Shown piece after piece: positions 2,175 to 12,454 of a stretch of DNA of 64,000 nt; the first letter of the stretch is position 1, and every line of letters starts with the position of its first letter. The stretch is from Candidatus Thorarchaeota archaeon (GTDB taxonomy: Archaea > Asgardarchaeota > Thorarchaeia > Thorarchaeales > Thorarchaeaceae). The stretch lies in the NCBI GenBank assembly GCA_963726195.1, contig CAVSBO010000003.1:852089-916088 (forward strand), written 5' to 3'. The notes beneath the pieces are model-generated. The model had not been told where the DNA came from. It worked only from the letters and a program-made list of their open reading frames with translations, and did not search any database. The position numbers were made by a program, and so were the translations under genes.

Positions 2175-2885
2175 GTGATGCACTCATCAGAATCGAATAC
2201 CGACAGACGATTGAGAATCAGCCATGGTCGCACTTGCAATTGCCCTCCGAATCACATCAACTGCCTGTCGGCCAAAGAGTGGATTCAGCATCAGATTGCT
2301 GTATGGGAGTTCTACTACGAGGCACGGGATGTGAGGGACAAGAACATTCATCCAGCGACCTATCCCATAGCACTTCCGTCAAAGTGCATATCTCTGTTCA
2401 CTCATAAGGGTGAACTGGTGCTGGACCCATTCGTCGGTGTGGGAACAACACTCGTCGCAGCCAGAGACCTCGCACGCAACGCAGTCGGGTTCGACCTAAA
2501 GGCGGACTATGTCGATTTCTCCAACAAGCGGCTGAGCTCTATGTCGGACAATGAGACAACGCAGATTGCATTGTGCGATGACGCTCATAACATACCTTCG
2601 TACCTTGAGGAGGAAACTGTTGCCGTCTGTGTGACATCTCCGCCCTATGCAAACCTCCTGAATCGCCGCAGACAGAACAAGAGTATGAGGGGCAATCTCA
2701 GGAAGGATGAATACTATCTCAAGGTACAGCAGTATTCTGACGATCCGAGGGATTTGGGCACCATGGATGCCGAGCCCTATGCGAAAACGCTAGGTGAAAT
2801 CTTCGGTGGCATTCTTCCTTTAATGCGACATAGAGCACACTGTCTTGTCAACATAACTGACTACTGGTGGGAAGACAGAAGGGTT
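2175..2885 (+). pseudogene. N4/N6 site-specific DNA methyltransferase, 5' part (237 codons), interrupted by the IS607-type element
   Basis: HPATYP, motif I DPFVGVGTT, motif IV TSPPY. Homology-like sequence stops at ...WWEDRRV and resumes at 11033. Confidence 0.9.
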
Positions 2886-2901
2886 GACAACAGCTGCCTA
2901 G

Positions 2902-2921
2902 AAGTTGGACAATCTTGGACA
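2902..2921 (+). repeat. Left subterminal repeat AAGTTGGACAATCTTGGACA (two TTGGACA units, 10-bp period)
   Basis: 19/20 identical to the reverse complement of 11000-11019. Confidence 0.9.
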
Positions 2922-2960
2922 CCACAGAACTGAAGAGCCGCAGCGCGACTGACACGATGC

Positions 2961-3587
2961 ATGTTGAGTGTGTCAGCAGCTGCGGTCAGGGTTGGGGTCT
3001 GTGCAAAAACCATCCGACGGTGGGACGACAGGGGTCTTCTCCGATGTTTCAGGACCCGAGGTGGTCACAGACGAGTGCCTCAGTCAGAAATTGAACGAGT
3101 CATCTCAGAAAGGGAGCCGAGAGCAGATTCTCATATGACCTGCTCAAGAGCAACAATCGTGTACGCACGAGTATCGTCCCACGGGCAGAAGGCCTCAGGT
3201 GACCTTGACAGACAGGTCGGCGAACTGCTCGCAAGTTCTGGCGAGGCATCTCCTCTTGTCCTCCCTGACGTCGGCTCCGGACTCAACATGAGGCGCAGGG
3301 GTCTATGGCAGCTGATACATGCTGCAGAGAGAGGACTCGTCAACCGGGTGATTGTCACTCACAGGGACAGACTGGCCCGCTTCGGGACCGAATTGATTGA
3401 GCATATCCTCTGCCTCCATGGCGTGGCCGTCAATGTCCTTCACGAGAACCGGGACATGACTCCTCAGGAAGAAGTGGTCGCCGATCTGATAGCACTAATT
3501 GCATCGTTCTCCGGACGTATCTATGGGCTTAGAGGTGCCATCCTCAGGGCCACAAGAGACCCGCTCAGACAAAGTTCTACTTCTTGA
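2961..3587 (+). CDS. tnpA: IS607-family serine transposase
   Basis: N-terminal MerR-like HTH (GVCAKTIRRWD...TRGGHRR), catalytic YARVSSHGQ, DVGSGLN, HRDRLARFG, C-terminal FSGRIYGLR. Confidence 0.95.
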   Translation: MLSVSAAAVRVGVCAKTIRRWDDRGLLRCFRTRGGHRRVPQSEIERVISEREPRADSHMTCSRATIVYARVSSHGQKASGDLDRQVGELLASSGEASPLVLPDVGSGLNMRRRGLWQLIHAAERGLVNRVIVTHRDRLARFGTELIEHILCLHGVAVNVLHENRDMTPQEEVVADLIALIASFSGRIYGLRGAILRATRDPLRQSSTS

Positions 3588-3590
3588 AAA

Positions 3591-3698
3591 GGGACGCGGT
3601 CCTCCTCACGATTTCTCTCCAGCCCCGGTGGAGAGACCGTGGGCTTCAAGCTGTTTCTCTACTGCGTTTTCGGTTTTTCCGTCTTGAAACCTTGCGTC
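3591..3698 (-). ncRNA. Candidate structured RNA or IS605-like right-end motif between converging tnpA and cargo gene
   Basis: Stems tctctcca/tggagaga (3614-3636), ctcacg/cgtggg, ttcaag/cttgaa and gacgc/gcgtc. Minus strand reads GAAGCCCACG...CGTGAGGAGG. Strand and function are inferred. Confidence 0.35.
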
Positions 3699-6600
3699 AC
3701 TCCTGATTTCCAGAAGCTGCACCCTGTTCATGAGCCTTCCGGACATCTCTAACCACATCAGGGACCTGCTTCCTCAATACCTCGCCAAGGTTCTCAATGC
3801 TCTGGAGTCGAGGCACTATTTCGAGCTCCACAGCCTCTCTTACTTCTCGCACCGCTTGTTGTACACCTTCGCCGAGCAGGATCTTCGGGTCATCATAGAG
3901 CATTCCCGATGCTGTACGAGTTCCATCGGTTTCTTCACTTACCCAATAGATTGCCTGATTCTGAGAATACAAGGTCACTGTCCACGTCGCTGGCTCCTCC
4001 GCGAACTCTTCATCATGGCGACCAAGGTGTGTTCCAGCATGATTCAGCCAAGATGTCACTCGCCTGATGAACTGCTGTTTGTTCCTTATGGAGAAACCGC
4101 TCATCTCGCCCTCTCTCATGCTTTCCCTTAGCATGTCTACGACTTCCTCGGCATCCTCTTCACTCTCAATCTCTATTGTCCGTGACAGGAGCGGCTCACG
4201 TCGACCCTGTCCGATAGGAAAGACAGCATATGTACAGCTTGTTTCAGACAGGTCAGAGAGCCGTAGTTCACAAGGTGGGCTTCTTGCCGAGTACCCATGT
4301 CCCTTGAGTTCTGACAGGATTCGCTTCCTGAGCGCTCCGTACTCCTCTATTGCATTCATTGGGATCCGGGACGTGATGACATTCAATATCCTCTGGCACT
4401 CTTTCTCCGCGCCGTGGCCGTGCACCAACTCGATTGTCTGGGGAGTTTCCGTAAGGAATAGTCCTGTGATTGTCGACTGTGCTTGCCACTCGACATACTT
4501 CGGCTCTGTACATGACAGGCCGACCAGCCAAGTCTGTTCTCTCACTCTCAGATAGGTTCCGGGCTCTAGAGGTTTCAATGACAGACCGTTCCTCCGAAGG
4601 AACATGCGGACGTACTGCTCCTCATGATACACCACGCTTTCATCTTCCCCAGAACCCTAGGCATGACGATGGCAAGTCTGTACAATCGCCCTGCATAGAC
4701 TCTCCCTGGGGCAAGGAGCCCATTCACAGCTTCTCCGGTCATCGGTCTTCCAAGCTGTCGCTTTACTTGATTAGGACAGTCTGGCGGCAATGATATCCGC
4801 CAGCAGGCACCGTGATCGTACTCCTCACTATAGGGCGATGGGACAGATCGACTGGTCATGTTCAATGCTCACCTTGAGGGTCCCGGCCTCTTCGAAGAAC
4901 CCGGACACTCGTGCAGGGAGTTCCTCCACCTCAGTTCGTGCAGCCTTGAAAGTGACATATGGTCCAATGAAATCCAGTTCTCCGTACACGATATCATCGA
5001 AGACACTCCAAGTGACGTACGTGCCCGAGTCTGTGTACATGGGTCCTGAGTTTGTCATAGGCCATCTGAGGAGTGAAATGAGTTCTGCCGTGTATTCCAC
5101 GTTCACCTCTTGGAGGATTTCATCATCGCCATCAACGAACCTAACTTGGCAGACATTATTCACCATCTCAAGACGCACACTGACAGATGCTGGTCGCGTG
5201 ACAGCCTCGATGTACCTACGCAGAGAGGCTGCCACACGTTGGTAGAACGACTCTGGTAGTTTCGTTCCTTGAGAAGCTTCAGTAACAGAGGGCTTAGTGA
5301 AGGACTGTCTTATGGCACGGAGATGACGGACTGATGAGTGCCCCTGTTCCACCAGCTCGAGGACTCCCGAGTAGACTCTCTCATGATCGTCCGTTTCCAT
5401 GCTCCATGTTTCCAGCCCCTGTTCAGTTGGTCTGAATTCCATTAGGACTTGTGAGGACCCGAGAATCTCGTCGGGTGTCTGTTGTGTTAGTACCTCTTGT
5501 TTGGTCTCACTCCAGAGGAGCCCCTCCTTGTCTGGAGACTTGCTCATGAAGCAACCAATGAGCATGCGGGCCTCATTCTCGGGGTCCTGCATGACAAGCC
5601 ACCAGGGAAGAGCAGTCTCATCCTCCGGTAGAAACCTGATTCCAAACGTCAGTCCAGCCGTCGTTCTTTCACTGGAAGTGACAAGCTCCACTGTCTTTGG
5701 AGGAAATGCAACAATGGTTCCTGGCCTTGTCTTCAACCTATTGGGTGAGCGGTAGAGCCGCTGGGAATTGATTCTACCCAGGGTCGTGGCCACGTACCCC
5801 TTGCCGGCCCCTGTCTCAGGGTGTCGGTAGCGCACAAGGTCAAGGACACTTGGAGTCTTGGCGGGAGGCCCATCAAGAACTCGTACTTCGAAAGTCAGGT
5901 CATCAGGGGCTCCTCTGAACTCATGCATGACTGCGTCGAACCGTTCCTTGATGCTCTCTTTCGAGTCATCTGAGAGCATCTTGTCAGGCCACAGGCAGAC
6001 AAGCCAAGGGAGCAAGGTCATCGAGAGGAGCCTTATCCTGCTGCGAGTAGCCTTGTCGGGTACGATGTCGTCCAGCCCTCTCTCCTGCACAACGAGTCCC
6101 TTCCCTTGGTTCTTGAACCGCCTTGACCAGCCCCTCAGCGGAGGTACGAGCACGAGCTCAGTGTTCATGTCTTCGGGAGAATGGCGAACGACTACTCGGA
6201 TATCATCATGCATTGGTGAGTCCCCGATGACTGGCAACCCACATTTCTCAGGCTCGACAGCATTCCTTGGTGCCACAGGTAGGTTCCAGACAATCTCAGT
6301 GACGACCTCAGCAAGAGATGAATTGTCATAGAATGGGAGAAGGGCTCTGGTTGCATATGGGACGGACTTCTCGGAAGAGGGCGTAGGTGCATCGAACCAC
6401 AGGACCGTCGTCTTCTTGTTGTCTGGAAGACTGTCCAGAAGCTGGTCCATTACGACCTGTAGTCTATCTCGGTGGCTCTCCGGAGTTGCATCTCGCAGGG
6501 TATCTGCCCCCGTCACGATGACTATTGTGTGGCTATTGATGCCCTTGTCCAGCTCGAACGATGGTATGTCTCCACCCTCATAGAGATATGATAGGATTTC

Positions 6601-8657
6601 GTCAAGGCGCCCTCTAACCTCTATGCCTTGAAAGAACTCTCGAATATGGTCTGGTTGCGTCTTCGCCACCTCGTCATCAGAGTATCCTCTTGGCCTTAGG
6701 CGAAGGCGTGCCTCTGCAAGGTGGGGCTCAGTGAACTGACTTGCAAGGTCAAACCAAACAAACCGTGCACCGAGGTGGCTCTCTTTCATCTCATAGAGCA
6801 TCTGAAGCCCATGATAGTTCCGTGCATTCCAGGCGGCGGACTGGCCTGCAGATGTCGGGGATCTCCCTACAAGATAGAGAATGAATCTTCGTCTGCTCTC
6901 TAGGCTCTGCTGGAACGGGTTGTAGAGTGGTTTCCACGGGACGTCAATAGCCTCTCCCCCCTGCTTCTCAGGAACGACTTGCTCATGAATGATCAGAGCG
7001 ACTCTGCTATTGCTTCCTCCAATAGGCCTGATGGCCGTTCTTTGAACTGCTCCACTCATCTTCTTGATGGATTCATAGGCCTTTACCAATAGCCCTTCAA
7101 TGGTTCGTCTGGCTTTATTGATATCAGTAATGGACTCGATGACTATCGTTCCTCTTGGCACGTACCTTGGCTCCAGCCCAGTGGCTTCATGGTATCTCTC
7201 AGCCAGCGCTTGTGCATAGACCTCTACTTGTCGCTGTGCAGATGCGCTGGGAGCGGATTTGACAATGGCGTCCCATTCTTTGTCCTCAAGAGTTCGGTCT
7301 TCAACGGGTAGCTCAGCAACAATACGGGGAGGAAGCCCTCTATGCAATCTGGACTCAGATGATTTCTCTTCAGCATCAATATGCCACTGATGCCCCATGC
7401 GGGTCTTGATCTCGCAGACGAATGCTGGTCTCCAGAGGATTTGTTTCCCGTCAGCTGTGATGATCCTCTCTAGAAGTAGAATGTCCACTTTTCCCAACCC
7501 GGACTCAGTCACTATCGCCAGCTCTGACACAATAGCATACTCAGAGGCCCCTACATACCTATGTCCATTGAAGATGACGTCATTCAGATGCCATGGGCTG
7601 GGAAAGAGGTCTGATATCCTTCTGTGCATTATCGACCCCTTTAGTTTCGCTCGACTGGTTGCCTGCTGTCTGATGTATTCGACATCAGCTTTGGTTAGGC
7701 ACGGTTCTTCAAGACCGGGCGTTCTAATGAAACCCCTCTGTGTCAGTCGTTCAAGCTCTTGAAGAGCAGGATGATTGCCATAGAATGTCAGTGCTTCGTC
7801 GAGCTGGCTCCGAAAGAAGTCGAAGGACGTATTGGATGCTCCATGTTCGAAGTCCCCCATCACGCTCTTGGCCGCTTGCATCGTGGGGTGATACCCGGAC
7901 TCTGAAATCAGCTCTTTCACTCTTCGAAGAGCAGCGTTCGCCCCCTTTCTGAACTCTGGTCTCCCACACTTGTGCTCTGAGTAGATGTATTCAAGATAAG
8001 GTCGTACAAGAAGGAGAAGGAGATTGCAGTACTTGGTGGTCTCGCTCACAGGCACATCACAGATTGTGCAGTAGGTGGCAAGATACTCACCATGACTCCG
8101 AGCAGCATCACCAAAGTCCATAGAGGGAAGGTCAGGATGCGTGAGCATGACTCGTGGCCCGAAGGAGGACCCCTCGTATCCTGCGACTCTAAACTCTTTT
8201 CTGTGAGATCCCGCTCGCACTGTACGTGTTCCAAATTGAGTGGCATCAGGAAATGGGAACTCTCTCTGTGAGAACTCTCTGAGGGTAGCACCACATGCAT
8301 TAAACCGCTGGTTCAGAGGACCCACAGTGCCATCAGGATTCTTCTGTCTGGAGACCTCAGTATGCCCAAATTCAGCAGCCTTCTCATAGAGCATCTTGAG
8401 CATGTTGTTCCTGATTTGAGGTTCAGCCTTGAGAACGGACGAGCAGTCAGGGGTACCTCGTTCCTTGCTCAGAAGATAGACGTGTCGAGTCTCTGCCAAA
8501 TCTCGTAGGAACTCCAGTAATGAGCACAGGTCAGTCTGTTCTTCATGCTACATTGGAGTTTCACCGTCGAGGCAAGCCCTGTCCGCAATGCAGCTGACAT
8601 GACACGTTCTGGATGAACGGGTAGTGGCCGAACAGGACGCCCTCTTGGCCTTGCCAT
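3697..8657 (-). CDS. Giant (~1650 aa) cargo protein with PD-(D/E)XK RecB/Cas4-like nuclease motifs; split into 4 ORFs by probable sequencing frameshifts
   Basis: Overlapping same-strand ORFs 8469-8657, 4828-8499, 4575-4865 and 3697-4635 join by single frameshifts. N-terminal RPRGRP (AT-hook), GKVDILLLE...VCEIKT...QVEVYA, then a degenerate P-loop-like segment. Confidence 0.7.
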
Positions 8658-8867
8658 CTCACTGATAGGATGGCATTGTGATATTTAAGTTCATTTTTTG
8701 GAAGTAACAGGCGCGGAACTCAGGTATCAAGAACTGGCTTGTTTCATAAAATCTGCCCCTTCTTCTTTATCAAACAAAAGGCTAACCTTTTACTCTGGTA
8801 ATTATACGTCGCTTGCTTTTGTATGCCCTTATATCCCGACTTCAGCACCAATATGCGGTAGAGGCTG
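8658..8867. promoter_or_regulatory. AT-rich divergent promoter region between cargo gene and tnpB
   Basis: Head-to-head genes; TATA-like atatttaa (8681-8688), taattata (8799-8806) and ttatat (8829-8834). Confidence 0.5.
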
Positions 8868-10999
8868 ATGAAGAGACAACCCCGGCGTCATCCCCGGGCG
8901 CCAAACCATGACGTACAACAGGCAAGGCAACAAACAATGGATGATAATTATACGTCCTCTTCATCCACTTACCAAGCCGAGAAGTTCTCTCTCAACTCAT
9001 ATCCTAGAATTGTCGATCGAAAGGGAAAGAAAAGACGACCTGACCCTTCCTTCTCCGCAACACACAGACCCCCCGTCGAACAAGCACTAAGGGAGCTTGT
9101 CAGCGGCAACAAGTGCTCTGACATCGATATCCAGACACTTGAGCAGCACTTCGACAAGTATCTCAATGCAGTCAATCTCGTACTTGATGAGGTATACTCT
9201 GCTTCCGATCGCGCCCAGCGTGTCGGAGAGCGATTGCGCTCTTCAAGAGGACAAGGCTATGTAGTACTAAGAGAAGAGAACTTTCTAGAATGGAAACCGG
9301 ACAACAGGTTCGGACAACTAGTCTATGAGCGAATGTATCGTAATGTCCTTGAGACCGCAGCCCGCATCGTGTTGGCTGACTACACGCGCAGGACACTGGT
9401 CAACTCACTAATCACGATGCTGGCGAGTGATAGGCAGCAACTCAAGTCGCTCATGGCTCTCAAACGAATCCCTGCTCCTCTTGTCAGAAAGCTGCGAGCG
9501 ACAGTCGGTGAAACATCTGGTTCGTACTATCACTACGCGCTCACGGCATGCAAACAGCTTCGAAGAGCACTCGATGAACACCTCCTTGAGAGCTTCGGCG
9601 AGTCCACATCCATCCGAAGACTAGCAAGGGACCGAGTTCGCGACCTTCTCGATACTCAATCGTCTGAATCAATCAAGGCCATGAATGCAACACTCAAGAA
9701 AGTGCAGAAATGGCACAAGACCGGTTTTCCATTCACTGCTCCCATTTTCAGACAAACCACCATGGACTTTACTGCATCTACTGAAAACACAACAGGACAA
9801 GGGTACTGGTTCATGGAGGACTCCGAGCGACAGGACGAGGTTATCCTGTATATCAAGACCCCTCCCGGGGTCACAGGTCGTCAAGCCACGCCTGATTCAC
9901 CGTACAAGAGCCAAACTCTTCGATTCAGGTTCCTCGACTGGTTGCCCCGAAAGGCAGCCCGTGCTCACAAAAAGGCAGAGGAGTCGAAAGCTCACGGTCA
10001 TTTCAGCAGGGCCGTGGAGTCTGAATATCGTGCTGCACGCTTTGACGATATGACCCAACAGCTGAGGAACAATGTCAGACTGCAGTGCCTGAATAGACAA
10101 CTTTCTTCTCTGAAGTCCAGAAAGGACATCGATGGAGAGAGGGTCAATGAACTGAAAGCCCAGATAACGGCGCTCAGACAGACCAGAAGGTGTGCCCCGC
10201 CCATCCTCAGTCTGCGAGGACACACTGCCACACTCATTATTCCCTTCCTATGCCCTGACAAACAGATGCTGAAACGAGTGCTGCCAACAGTCCCAAGGAC
10301 AGGCAGGGCAGGAGTCGACCGGGGTCTGAGATATCCGGTGGTCCTCTCAGTAAAGAACGGTGCAAACAGTATGATGAAACAAAGATAGGAAGGCCAGAGT
10401 CATTCGAGAGACGCGAGAGGCTCAGACAACGTACACGAGTCTTGATGTCACAGATCGTGCGACGACGGAACAACTGGGACAGGAAACGACCGATGCTGTC
10501 ACCTCCGTCCTCTATTCTGAAACGGGAGAGAGAGCTGGAGGCAGTGTGGGCCAAGGTCCGACGCATCGACCGAGAAATCTCCCATCAGCTGGCCGCTGAG
10601 ACCGTCTGGTTCTGTGAGCATCGTGGTGTCAAGACTGTCTACTTCGAAGACCTACGGTACTTCCAACCACAGGGCGGGTTCAAAACTCATTCATGGGAGC
10701 TGTCAACCAACCTCTGGGGGAAAATCATTGAAGGGGTCCGATATCGCAGACAGGCCCTAGGTCACAAGTACGGTGGAGTATGGACTGTGAACCCAGCCAT
10801 GACATCCCAGAGATGTAGTACCTGTGGTGAGAAAGGAGTGCGCGTCAGAGACAGTGATTCCACAGAGGAGGAGCACGGTGGGGAGTTCTTCTACTGCCCG
10901 AGCTGTGACCTCAAACTGCACGCAGACGTGAACGCGGCCAGAAACATCCTTATGATTCAACAACCCAAGCCCAGTGCCGTTTCTGGGCGGACTGCTTGA
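8868..10999 (+). CDS. tnpB: Oversized TnpB / Cas12-like RNA-guided RuvC nuclease (~690-710 aa; one frameshift near 10360-10370)
   Basis: RuvC-I GVDRG (D codon at 10317, residue ~484), RuvC-II YFEDL, VNPAMTSQRCSTCG...CPSC zinc finger, RuvC-III HADVNAARNI. ORFs 8868-10388 and 10442-10999 join via KQYDETKIGRPESF. Confidence 0.9.
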
Positions 11000-11019
11000 T
11001 GTCCAAGTTTGTCCAACTT
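11000..11019 (-). repeat. Right subterminal repeat, inverted relative to the left one
   Basis: TGTCCAAGTTTGTCCAACTT is the reverse complement of 2902-2921 with 1 mismatch. Confidence 0.9.
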
Positions 11020-11032
11020 ACAATGAACGGTT

Positions 11033-11206
11033 CCTGCTCACATGTATGTCATCAATGCATTGCAGGATGTAGGGTACGAACTCCGTAACATAATCATCTG
11101 GGACAGGCAGAACATAGTGAACCGTGCTGGCATCTTCGGGTGGCCCAACAATTACATCACTCTCAGCACGACCTTCGAGTACATTGTTGATTTCTGGCGT
11201 CCATGA
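11033..11206 (+). pseudogene. DNA methyltransferase, 3' part (57 codons) after the element
   Basis: PAHMYVINALQDVGYELRNIIIWDRQN...TTFEYIVDFWRP*: typical IIW..EYI MTase C-terminal motifs, in frame with 2175-2885 after excision. Confidence 0.9.
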
Positions 11207-11263: not shown

Positions 11264-12342
11264 TCAGATTCCGAGAATGGGAAATACCAATTCCTTGACC
11301 TTTCGAACTGTTTCGCGCACGGTCATCCATATTTCTGCATCATCCTTGAAAGGCGGCTTTTGCTTGGGAGGAGAATACTTGCGACCTGACAAGCACGGAT
11401 ATGACCGTGGCCACACCCCAGCACAAAGAGTCTGGATGGTACCCTCCGCCCGTCACTACTCCAAGTCGACCGTCACTCCACTTGTGTGCTGCATTGTGTA
11501 TTCTCTCTGCGATGTATCTTATCATCGTCGTCGTCAGTTTGAGGTGCGCTAGGCGATCCAGGTAATGTGCATCAAAGCCGGGCAGAAACAGGATGAACTG
11601 AGGACGAAAGAAATCGACCAGCTTCGGGACCAGCTCGTCAAAGGCATATCTGTATACTCCATCGCCCGCGTCCATCGGAAATGGCATATTGATGTTGTAG
11701 CCGGAGCCACGACCAGAACCGACCTCGTTCACGTACCCTTCGTGAGGGTACATCCATTCAGGATCCTCATGGAAAGAGATGACCATGACCTCCGGATCGT
11801 CGTAGAAGTACGCTTGGTCCCCATTTCCGTGGTGGACATCGAAATCCGCGACAAGTATTCGATTCAGACCATTCTGTTTGAGCTCGCTAACAGCGGCCGC
11901 GATATCATTGAAAACACAGAAGCCACCACCCTTATCGAACTTGGCGTGATGAAAGCCGCCGGTGGGAGACATAAAGTGCTCCACGCGTCCCGACATGATT
12001 GAGTGGACTCCAGTGACGGTAGCACCGGACAAAACTAGAGCATTCTCGTATATTCCTCTGAAACCCGGCGTGTCTATGTCAATCTCACCTTGGCCGGTCT
12101 CAGAAATCGTTCTGACCTTCTCAATGTATTCGGAGGAATGCACGCGCTCGAGAATGGGCACAGGAAGAGACTCTGCTTGTCAGCTCAGTTACGTTCTGAG
12201 ATGCAAGCAGCCCGGCCGAATCCAAGAAATCCCTGATCATTCTGAAACGCCCGGGTCTCAATGGGTGCCGGTCACCATAGTCAAAACTGTCGAAGACCGG
12301 GCTCCACATGAAGCCGACTTGGCAGTCTCTCCTCGGGATCAC
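11264..12342 (-). CDS. Histone deacetylase / AcuC-family deacetylase (two frameshifts)
   Basis: HPLRPGRF, GGFHHA, GGFCVFND, DFDVHHGNG, GFDAHYLD, GGGY. Confidence 0.9.
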
Positions 12343-12454
12343 ACACCGCCACCATTCCAGCTTTTGGTAAGCTTCGGAATCACGCGTACTAATGGATGCC
12401 GATTTGAGTGTCAGTGTTGTGTGACGCAAACGGAATGTTAGTGCCTAAATTGCA

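Follow-up and report, generated by a model that had tools for sequence, protein, structure and literature searches.

A Thorarchaeota IS607 transposon in which a Cas1-like giant gene, aCas1, faces tnpB

Results and Discussion

An IS607 transposon interrupts a methyltransferase gene

The DNA analysed here, referred to as the window, is a stretch of 64,000 nucleotides (nt) from a Candidatus Thorarchaeota archaeon (assembly GCA_963726195.1, contig CAVSBO010000003.1, positions 852,089 to 916,088 of the forward strand), and positions 2884-11030 of it are an 8,147-bp IS607 transposon. The element holds tnpA, tnpB and, between them, a giant gene that we identify with the Asgard Cas1 homologue aCas1 (Table 1), and it splits a DNA-methyltransferase gene of the host at a GG core. 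An earlier reading of the sequence, the original prediction, had given it exact ends, and these hold: GGTT is present at both junctions (2882-2885 and 11029-11032), excision of 2884-11030 in silico opens the methyltransferase frame again, and the empty allele which that reading proposed to look for was found. The predicted empty site aligns free of gaps to a genome of the same genus (G002, 84% identity) and also to four more distant genomes, the methyltransferase gene is uninterrupted in G002 and other genomes, and in an unrelated sequencing run on peat (X5) one contig joins 2881 to 11029, skipping 8,147 bases.

The similarity among twenty right ends of this genome stops after ...AACGG, and left ends begin after GGG; the core is therefore GG, and the TT that follows it here is partly coincidence and partly target preference. 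The 5′ flank ends in AGGG, comprising the GG core and the predicted target-adjacent motif (TAM). GGTT was also considered as a 4-bp target duplication and rejected, given that the empty site has one copy and the other ends share only GG; the empty-site comparison and the comparison of ends revealed neither a target duplication nor terminal inverted repeats. The inverted repeats of the original prediction are present as two 23-nt arms (2902-2924 and 10997-11019, 91% complementary), each built of a 7-nt motif repeated twice and subterminal rather than terminal. The left end is conserved 70-80 bp upstream of tnpA in 9/9 TnpA-bearing loci, and is also found at 28/29 of the other TnpA loci examined. 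A contig joint of 2992 to 2888 is not the circle junction. At one related locus (L108), a 13-bp sequence starting from the GG core recurs unchanged, once within the left end and once beyond the right end; it may be a duplication or repair scar from homing.

Table 1. Features of the element and of its insertion site (window coordinates)
Feature	Position	Strand	Description
Methyltransferase, 5′ part	2175..2883	+	Interrupted N6_N4_Mtase, PF01555 78 bits; frame restored on joining
IS607-type left end	2884..2925	+	Two TTGGACA copies, probable TnpA sites
tnpA	2961..3587	+	IS607 serine recombinase, 208 amino acids (aa), N-terminal helix-turn-helix (HTH), catalytic YARVS motif intact
aCas1 giant gene	3697..8657	-	About 1,650 aa when intact; three frameshifts here
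aCas1 C-terminal half	3700..6020	-	Several confidently modelled domains, variable tail
RecA/RadA/Rad51-paralog-like domain	6025..6880, approximate	-	Walker A lysine not conserved
PD-(D/E)xK nuclease, Cas4/RecB type	7180..7842	-	H, E, D, (E/D)xK and QxxxY conserved
Cas1-fold catalytic (helical) domain	7900..8630, approximate	-	No N-terminal beta domain
Divergent intergenic region	8658..8867	.	AT-rich; TATA-like boxes about 8682-8689 (minus) and 8829-8834 (plus)
tnpB, long type	8868..10999	+	About 708 aa read through; RuvC D/E/D intact; frameshift near 10369
Right end, predicted 3′ part of omega RNA scaffold	10965..11030	+	Two hairpins, pseudoknot, inverted TnpA motifs
Predicted guide, 3′ flank	11031..11050	+	Matches empty methyltransferase allele after AGGG
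Methyltransferase, 3′ part	11031..11206	+	Frame restored on joining flanks; intact in relatives

The tnpA gene is the intact IS607 recombinase gene that had been expected at one end of the element; it matches NF033518 at 174 bits (cut-off 110) and is the sole gene of its kind in this assembly. For tnpB, the place at the other end of the element proved correct and an unbroken frame did not: the frameshift is of one base, and the contig of a relative has one base more there. Matches of TnpB to PF07282 and NF040570 are weak and fall under the curated TnpB cut-offs, the RuvC triad is conserved in 26 long-type TnpBs, and the tnpB stop sits 31 bp before the element end. The TATA-like boxes between tnpB and the giant gene may act as promoters.

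The giant gene had been taken for a single 5-kb open reading frame (ORF), but in this assembly it is broken by frameshifts near 8490, 4831 and 4655. Contigs of relatives carry frame-restoring base counts at two of the four frameshift places in the element, and the giant gene is fragmented in 0/95 copies from other genomes. The assembly is indel-prone, with 13/65 host genes shifted (0.24 per kb), and the four frameshifts may be true damage or mere sequencing error. An alternative genetic code was considered and is not needed, as the breaks are frameshifts and the homologues are open. Outside the element, a histone-deacetylase-like host gene (window 11340-12429) is split by a one-base shift near 12181 which is absent in the contig of a relative and is probably an assembly error.

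The giant protein has a Cas1-like domain and a nuclease domain

Pfam, NCBIfam and PDB sequence profiles gave no match for the giant protein. A model of the N-terminal 900 residues of one intact homologue (predicted local distance difference test, pLDDT, 88.7) matches Cas1 over residues 9-231, and Cas1 supplies the three best matches among 48,161 chains (VIA Z 13.1, 12.5 and 12.1; root-mean-square deviation 3.6-3.9 over 179-191 aligned residues). The region of the fourth Cas1 match includes 7mi4 Cas4/Cas1 (Z 10.6), and casposase matches at Z 10.2. Residues E, R, N, H, D, D and R are invariant or almost so in about 100 homologues and are present in the window, their order matching that of Cas1. 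PADLOC reported Cas1 (E 0.0017) for one aCas1 member. Sequence-level support being weak, the assignment of the N-terminal domain to the Cas1 fold rests on modelled fold and motif order. Weak Cas1 matches were also seen in ORFs of about 1,350 aa from another Asgard family (G123:C5:121343, G123:C4:342074 and G138:C9:5285), which appear to represent a different large Cas1 fusion.

The original prediction had described a PD-(D/E)XK protein; such a nuclease is present (Foldseek Dna2 E 2e-3; Atlas PDDEXK_1/Cas4 clusters at 0.84, a lead only), and the Cas1-fold domain ahead of it had been missed. The Rad51-like domain matches a RAD51-paralog complex (Foldseek E 1.4e-4; VIA Z 10.9); the Walker A position is variable among homologues and, with its lysine not conserved, the domain is probably no ATPase. 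The C-terminal 750 residues were modelled at pLDDT 86.6, and this half gave a best Z of 6.7 and no Foldseek match at E≤0.001, in a multi-domain model where weak matches may be missed. Across the family the active-site residues of the Cas1 domain, the nuclease and RuvC are essentially invariant.

The name aCas1 is said to go back to Makarova and co-workers, writing in the CRISPR Journal in 2020. The giant fits the Asgard Cas1 homologue whose linkage to TnpB was described, from computation only, as Cas1H-Asgard-1 and -2 (Altae-Tran et al., 2023; PMC10691335), where aCas1 was taken to replace the Y1 or serine recombinase and to be a likely transposase. The architecture, which the original prediction had not recognised, thus contains a published gene pair, and what had been called a passenger nuclease is aCas1. 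The further suggestion of a mobile defence or addiction module found no support. A defence or addiction effector carried as cargo would suit the two intact nuclease-type active sites and the patchy, multi-copy distribution, but we consider it very improbable in view of the strict head-to-head linkage to TnpB, of guides that in this assembly point only to their own flank or the empty allele, and of the lack of any defence-family match beyond weak N-terminal Cas1 hits.

The three-gene layout defines a lineage

The named homologues belong to Thorarchaeota. The giant gene was found in 50/85 genomes of the family, often in several copies, and in 2/191 other genomes of the phylum, where it faces TnpB in the two loci with room. 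TnpB stands head-to-head with aCas1 in 98/104 loci, and one lone locus with ample room has no TnpB; TnpA follows the aCas1 stop in 9/24 long-TnpB loci with room versus 0/53 short-TnpB loci. These loci are related and their counts are not independent events. They tie aCas1 to TnpB rather than to TnpA and bear out the earlier claim that tnpB, no longer coupled to tnpA, stands head-to-head with the giant gene.

On the sequences compared, aCas1 is nonetheless a constant component of this IS607 lineage. Behind each of the 17 intact homologues of this TnpA there is aCas1 sequence, lying just downstream; the three-gene layout is therefore a lineage and not an accident. Seven elements with both ends (7.96-8.66 kb) show the same layout, and a recurrent IS607 lineage, as the original prediction had inferred, is supported. 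The compact tnpA-tnpB arrangement, which is usual in IS607 without strictly defining the family, was not encountered, a 5-kb aCas1 gene intervening in every intact member; TnpA directly abuts tnpB solely in truncated, deleted copies. TnpA-bearing elements are spread over several deep aCas1 clades, in trees that were calculated with FastTree and midpoint-rooted, for which reason no donor and no order of events is claimed.

The same survey disposes of a one-off nested insertion or a misassembly, the two ways of failing that the original prediction had allowed for, and neither of which came about. No compared contig spans the whole element and the assembly has the indels described above, but other genomes, also of other genera, hold these three genes in the same order between both ends, and the empty site is seen independently; such an origin is effectively refuted already.

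Two loci (L168 and L176), where the aCas1 sequence behind TnpA runs in the same direction as TnpA, are rearranged copies. Further copies in this genome (G000 C16:21.7-29.2 kb, C16:216-223 kb, C8:106.6-114.2 kb and C13:52.6-54.8 kb) include an intact aCas1 and long TnpB with neither TnpA nor left end, a short-type copy that is broken, a further broken copy which has both ends but no TnpA, and a long TnpB standing alone.

The right end is predicted to form part of an omega RNA, and mini-copies share it

The loop of the first right-end hairpin can pair with the terminal AACGG to form a pseudoknot. Across 12 right ends, hairpin, second stem and pseudoknot are paired in 95% of cells (slid controls 21-54%), with four pairs showing two-sided changes; the structure was drawn from the same 12 sequences and the pairing score leans favourable. 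The last 66 nt of the element fold better than shuffles (z -2.8), and Rfam recognised no RNA family in the element. The flank consensus over full and mini copies is AGGG, which we predict to be the TAM. The guide is predicted to be the 3′ flank, following the logic of the IS607 CboIStron (10.1101/2023.11.20.567912). In a scan of this assembly alone, no guide of the genome matched beyond its own flank or empty allele.

This genome has 25 right ends, about 14-17 of which lie in mini-elements of 186-189 bp that carry a TATA-like box before the hairpin. One mini-element on contig C10 is absent from the 99.8% identical contig C9, giving a filled and an empty allele in the same assembly, and this difference suggests recent TnpA activity in the population. 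C9, which looks like an allelic contig of C10:38.8-45 kb, has neither this 186-bp mini-element nor a further 1.4-kb insertion.

Relatives without TnpA bear on the role of aCas1

The distribution of the remaining aCas1-TnpB loci was used to weigh what aCas1 does. None of the 65 short-TnpB loci, which occupy many different sites, has this TnpA adjoining, and the left end is almost never present. Guide-like units in TnpA-less loci match nearby sequence at ≤1 mismatch in 8/52 cases versus 0.07 expected, and the matched neighbours are mostly tRNA or 16S genes. In long-TnpB loci without TnpA (L048, L050, L056, L059, L111, L114 and L068), and likewise in the short-TnpB loci L064, L066 and L112, a tRNA (Lys, Arg or Thr) lies inverted 40-110 nt downstream and its 5′ arm is similar to the guide, this neighbour usually being more mismatched than other alleles. 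The same is true of the TnpA-less relatives in general, whose guides usually fit other alleles better than their own neighbouring 16S or tRNA gene, with L100 as an exception; the 16S genes next to L034, L039 and L105 hold insertions of about 30 nt inside the guide-matched site. At L046 and L082, compared with L122-L129, the element apparently splits a tRNA-Asp gene at GG, and an inverted, intron-bearing copy of the tRNA on the other side has that GG changed.

These loci furnish part of the case for aCas1 as a casposase-like transposase, perhaps aimed by TnpB as in the CRISPR-associated transposons (CAST), with the IS607 recombinase as a second and optional route. This proposal extends the published view (PMC10691335), and it can draw on the invariant Cas1 triad, the structural likeness to casposase, the varied sites that short-TnpB loci occupy with this TnpA never beside them, and the tRNA and 16S genes resembling guides which many TnpA-less loci adjoin. 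The copy in the window was inserted by IS607 chemistry, however, which used a GG core and left no duplication; TnpA-less loci showed neither a conserved left end nor terminal repeats next to the aCas1 stop; the distances from guide to element end are unfixed and RuvC is intact; the neighbouring target of a locus is usually a mismatched or interrupted allele; and the dimerisation domain of Cas1 is absent from the model. We regard a transposase role as unlikely, although it is the strongest of the competitors discussed here. The varying offsets and the poorer match of the own neighbour likewise weakened the candidate description of these relatives as CAST-like guided transposons. The pattern speaks for cutting of susceptible alleles followed by copying through recombination, more than for CAST-like insertion.

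A second competitor is suggested by arrays. One short-TnpB clade sits 203-259 nt behind a 16S gene and is the sole clade of relatives with short guide arrays; these lie 3′ of tnpB in L034, L036, L039, L096, L100, L105 and L106, and in three loci a repeat of 8 nt returns every 40 nt. Array units match three 16S sites, on both strands and each after G[GA]AT, and 9/14 do so with ≤1 mismatch (null 1 in 2,000). In this proposal aCas1 would be a Cas4-Cas1-like guide-acquisition enzyme that adds TAM-flanked units at the omega RNA 3′ end, so that it makes up, with TnpB, a minimal homing system that is adaptive and CRISPR-like; in the IS607 version aCas1 would merely travel with the element and TnpA would supply guides by insertion. 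A fusion of Cas1 with a Cas4-like nuclease is a known adaptation architecture, as in the Cas4/Cas1 of 7mi4, and the 16S matches of the one clade agree with the proposal. Against it, arrays are missing from the element and from every long-TnpB locus; the guide there is plain flank, and the Cas1 residues are nevertheless equally conserved; the arrays are few, share their units by descent and could be produced by end duplication; and no Cas2 was seen. We judge guide acquisition a little less probable still than a transposase role.

In most short-type relatives the motif GTTCACTCA occurs about 100 nt behind tnpB; it is absent from the window and from all long-type loci. By eye, the "hypervariable region" before GTTCACTCA is complementary to sequence after it, as in the arm of a hairpin with a variable stem. 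In genomes of genus g6 the end of the short-type omega RNA occurs up to about 24 times per genome and is commoner than aCas1; the surplus ends are possible stand-alone guide cassettes.

A proposed role for aCas1 in homing

By a modest margin of belief, we favour an autonomous IS607 transposon whose TnpB arm has been enlarged into an aCas1-TnpB module. The anatomy of a first step is evident, and its mechanism is borrowed from known IS607 elements: TnpA would bind the end repeats, excise the element as a circle and insert it at xAGGG sites through the GG core without target duplication, and would also mobilise the mini-copies (about 14-17, of 186-189 bp). In a second, well-supported step, an omega RNA from the right end would extend into the flank as a guide, and TnpB would cut the empty allele after the AGGG TAM and spare the filled one (ACGG), the cut allele being repaired from the filled chromosome. 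In a third step aCas1 would act as a cofactor of TnpB and not of TnpA: the Cas4/RecB-like nuclease and the Cas1 domain would trim or join broken ends, and the ATPase-dead Rad51-paralog-like domain would assist the loading of the host recombinase, allowing a long element to be copied into the cut allele. That aCas1 assists TnpB in just this way, by end processing and recombinase loading, we hold to be slightly short of an even proposition.

Several observations weigh against this scheme. Simple end trimming needs no intact integrase-type active site, and the known homing of IS607 TnpB functions without such a cofactor (10.1101/2023.11.20.567912). The aCas1 tree shows ten or more switches between two very different types of TnpB, and this speaks against a tightly co-evolved aCas1-TnpB complex. 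The Cas1 assignment itself is affected by a Z of 13 for the helical domain that is near VIA's caution line, and by an hhalign profile comparison with eight ordinary Cas1 proteins (a shallow profile), which was negative. Finally, this copy has four frameshifts versus 1.8 expected from the host-gene rate (P=0.11).

A two-protein RNA-guided system of aCas1 and TnpB, which the original prediction had considered, is plausible in functional terms. A bolder version, less likely than not, is a two-gene RNA-guided machine in which the Cas1-Cas4-like protein would either integrate DNA at sites that TnpB has marked or add new TAM-flanked guides after the omega RNA. If true, adaptive or guided integration would have arisen from an IS607 transposon independently and without Cas2, and the element in the window would be the recombinase-bearing form of it.

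With aCas1 fixed in a recombinase-driven transposon, the published guess that it is a transposase is called into question. The exact ends, the empty site, the predicted TAM and guide and the separate recombinase make the three proteins testable one by one. The element also bears on the first meeting of Cas1 and TnpB/Cas12 in the evolution of type V CRISPR, and it offers a 700-aa TnpB together with a cofactor that may process breaks or integrate DNA when long DNA is to be inserted by guides.

Comparison with known systems

Like H. pylori IS607 and the CboIStron of C. botulinum, the element has an HTH-serine recombinase, the GG core that is typical of IS607 (review PMC13565253) and no target duplication. 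The CboIStron scaffold, which was tested, ends in CGG and its TAM is TGGG (10.1101/2023.11.20.567912); here too there is a G-rich 5′ target, a predicted omega RNA ending in CGG with a pseudoknot, and a guide from the 3′ flank. The differences lie in size (about 8 kb versus about 2 kb), in the opposite-strand 5-kb gene between tnpA and tnpB, in a TnpB of about 708 aa, and in end repeats that are inverted between the two ends.

As in the published aCas1-TnpB loci (PMC10691335), TnpB is here coupled with a Cas1-like gene in an Asgard archaeon. Both studies distinguish two TnpB groups, here a long type of about 710 aa and a short type of about 560 aa with a rearranged RuvC-II; GTTCACTCA, which was reported there downstream of tnpB, lies behind the short type in our data, while the published account names the two groups and does not say which has the motif. 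The published "hypervariable region" looks to us like a hairpin arm and not a spacer. The present element differs in that aCas1 is accompanied by an intact IS607 TnpA, by IS607 ends and by a GG core. Literature searches returned no description of IS607 TnpA together with aCas1, and the combination is at odds with the published view of aCas1 as a substitute for TnpA.

Casposons (casposase, PDB 6opm) likewise have a Cas1-fold domain with intact E/H/D-type residues in a mobile element. Here, in contrast, there is no family B polymerase, the coding space being filled by three genes; terminal inverted repeats and a target duplication at this site are missing; and the Cas1 domain is without its N-terminal beta domain and fused into a 1,650-aa protein. 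The TnpA-less relatives recall type V-K CAST, which have truncated homing guides to tRNA (10.1101/2021.02.06.429022), in that they adjoin tRNA or rRNA genes similar to their guides; they differ in having no Tns proteins, an intact RuvC, unfixed offsets and an own target that is usually the resistant allele. The element itself has no TnsB, TnsC or TnsQ gene and its effector has an intact RuvC; as for type V CRISPR, no array is present in the element and no canonical Cas1 in this assembly (89% complete). The element is thus neither a casposon, a CAST nor a CRISPR system: by its defining features it is a member of IS607, and by its gene content an aCas1-TnpB locus.

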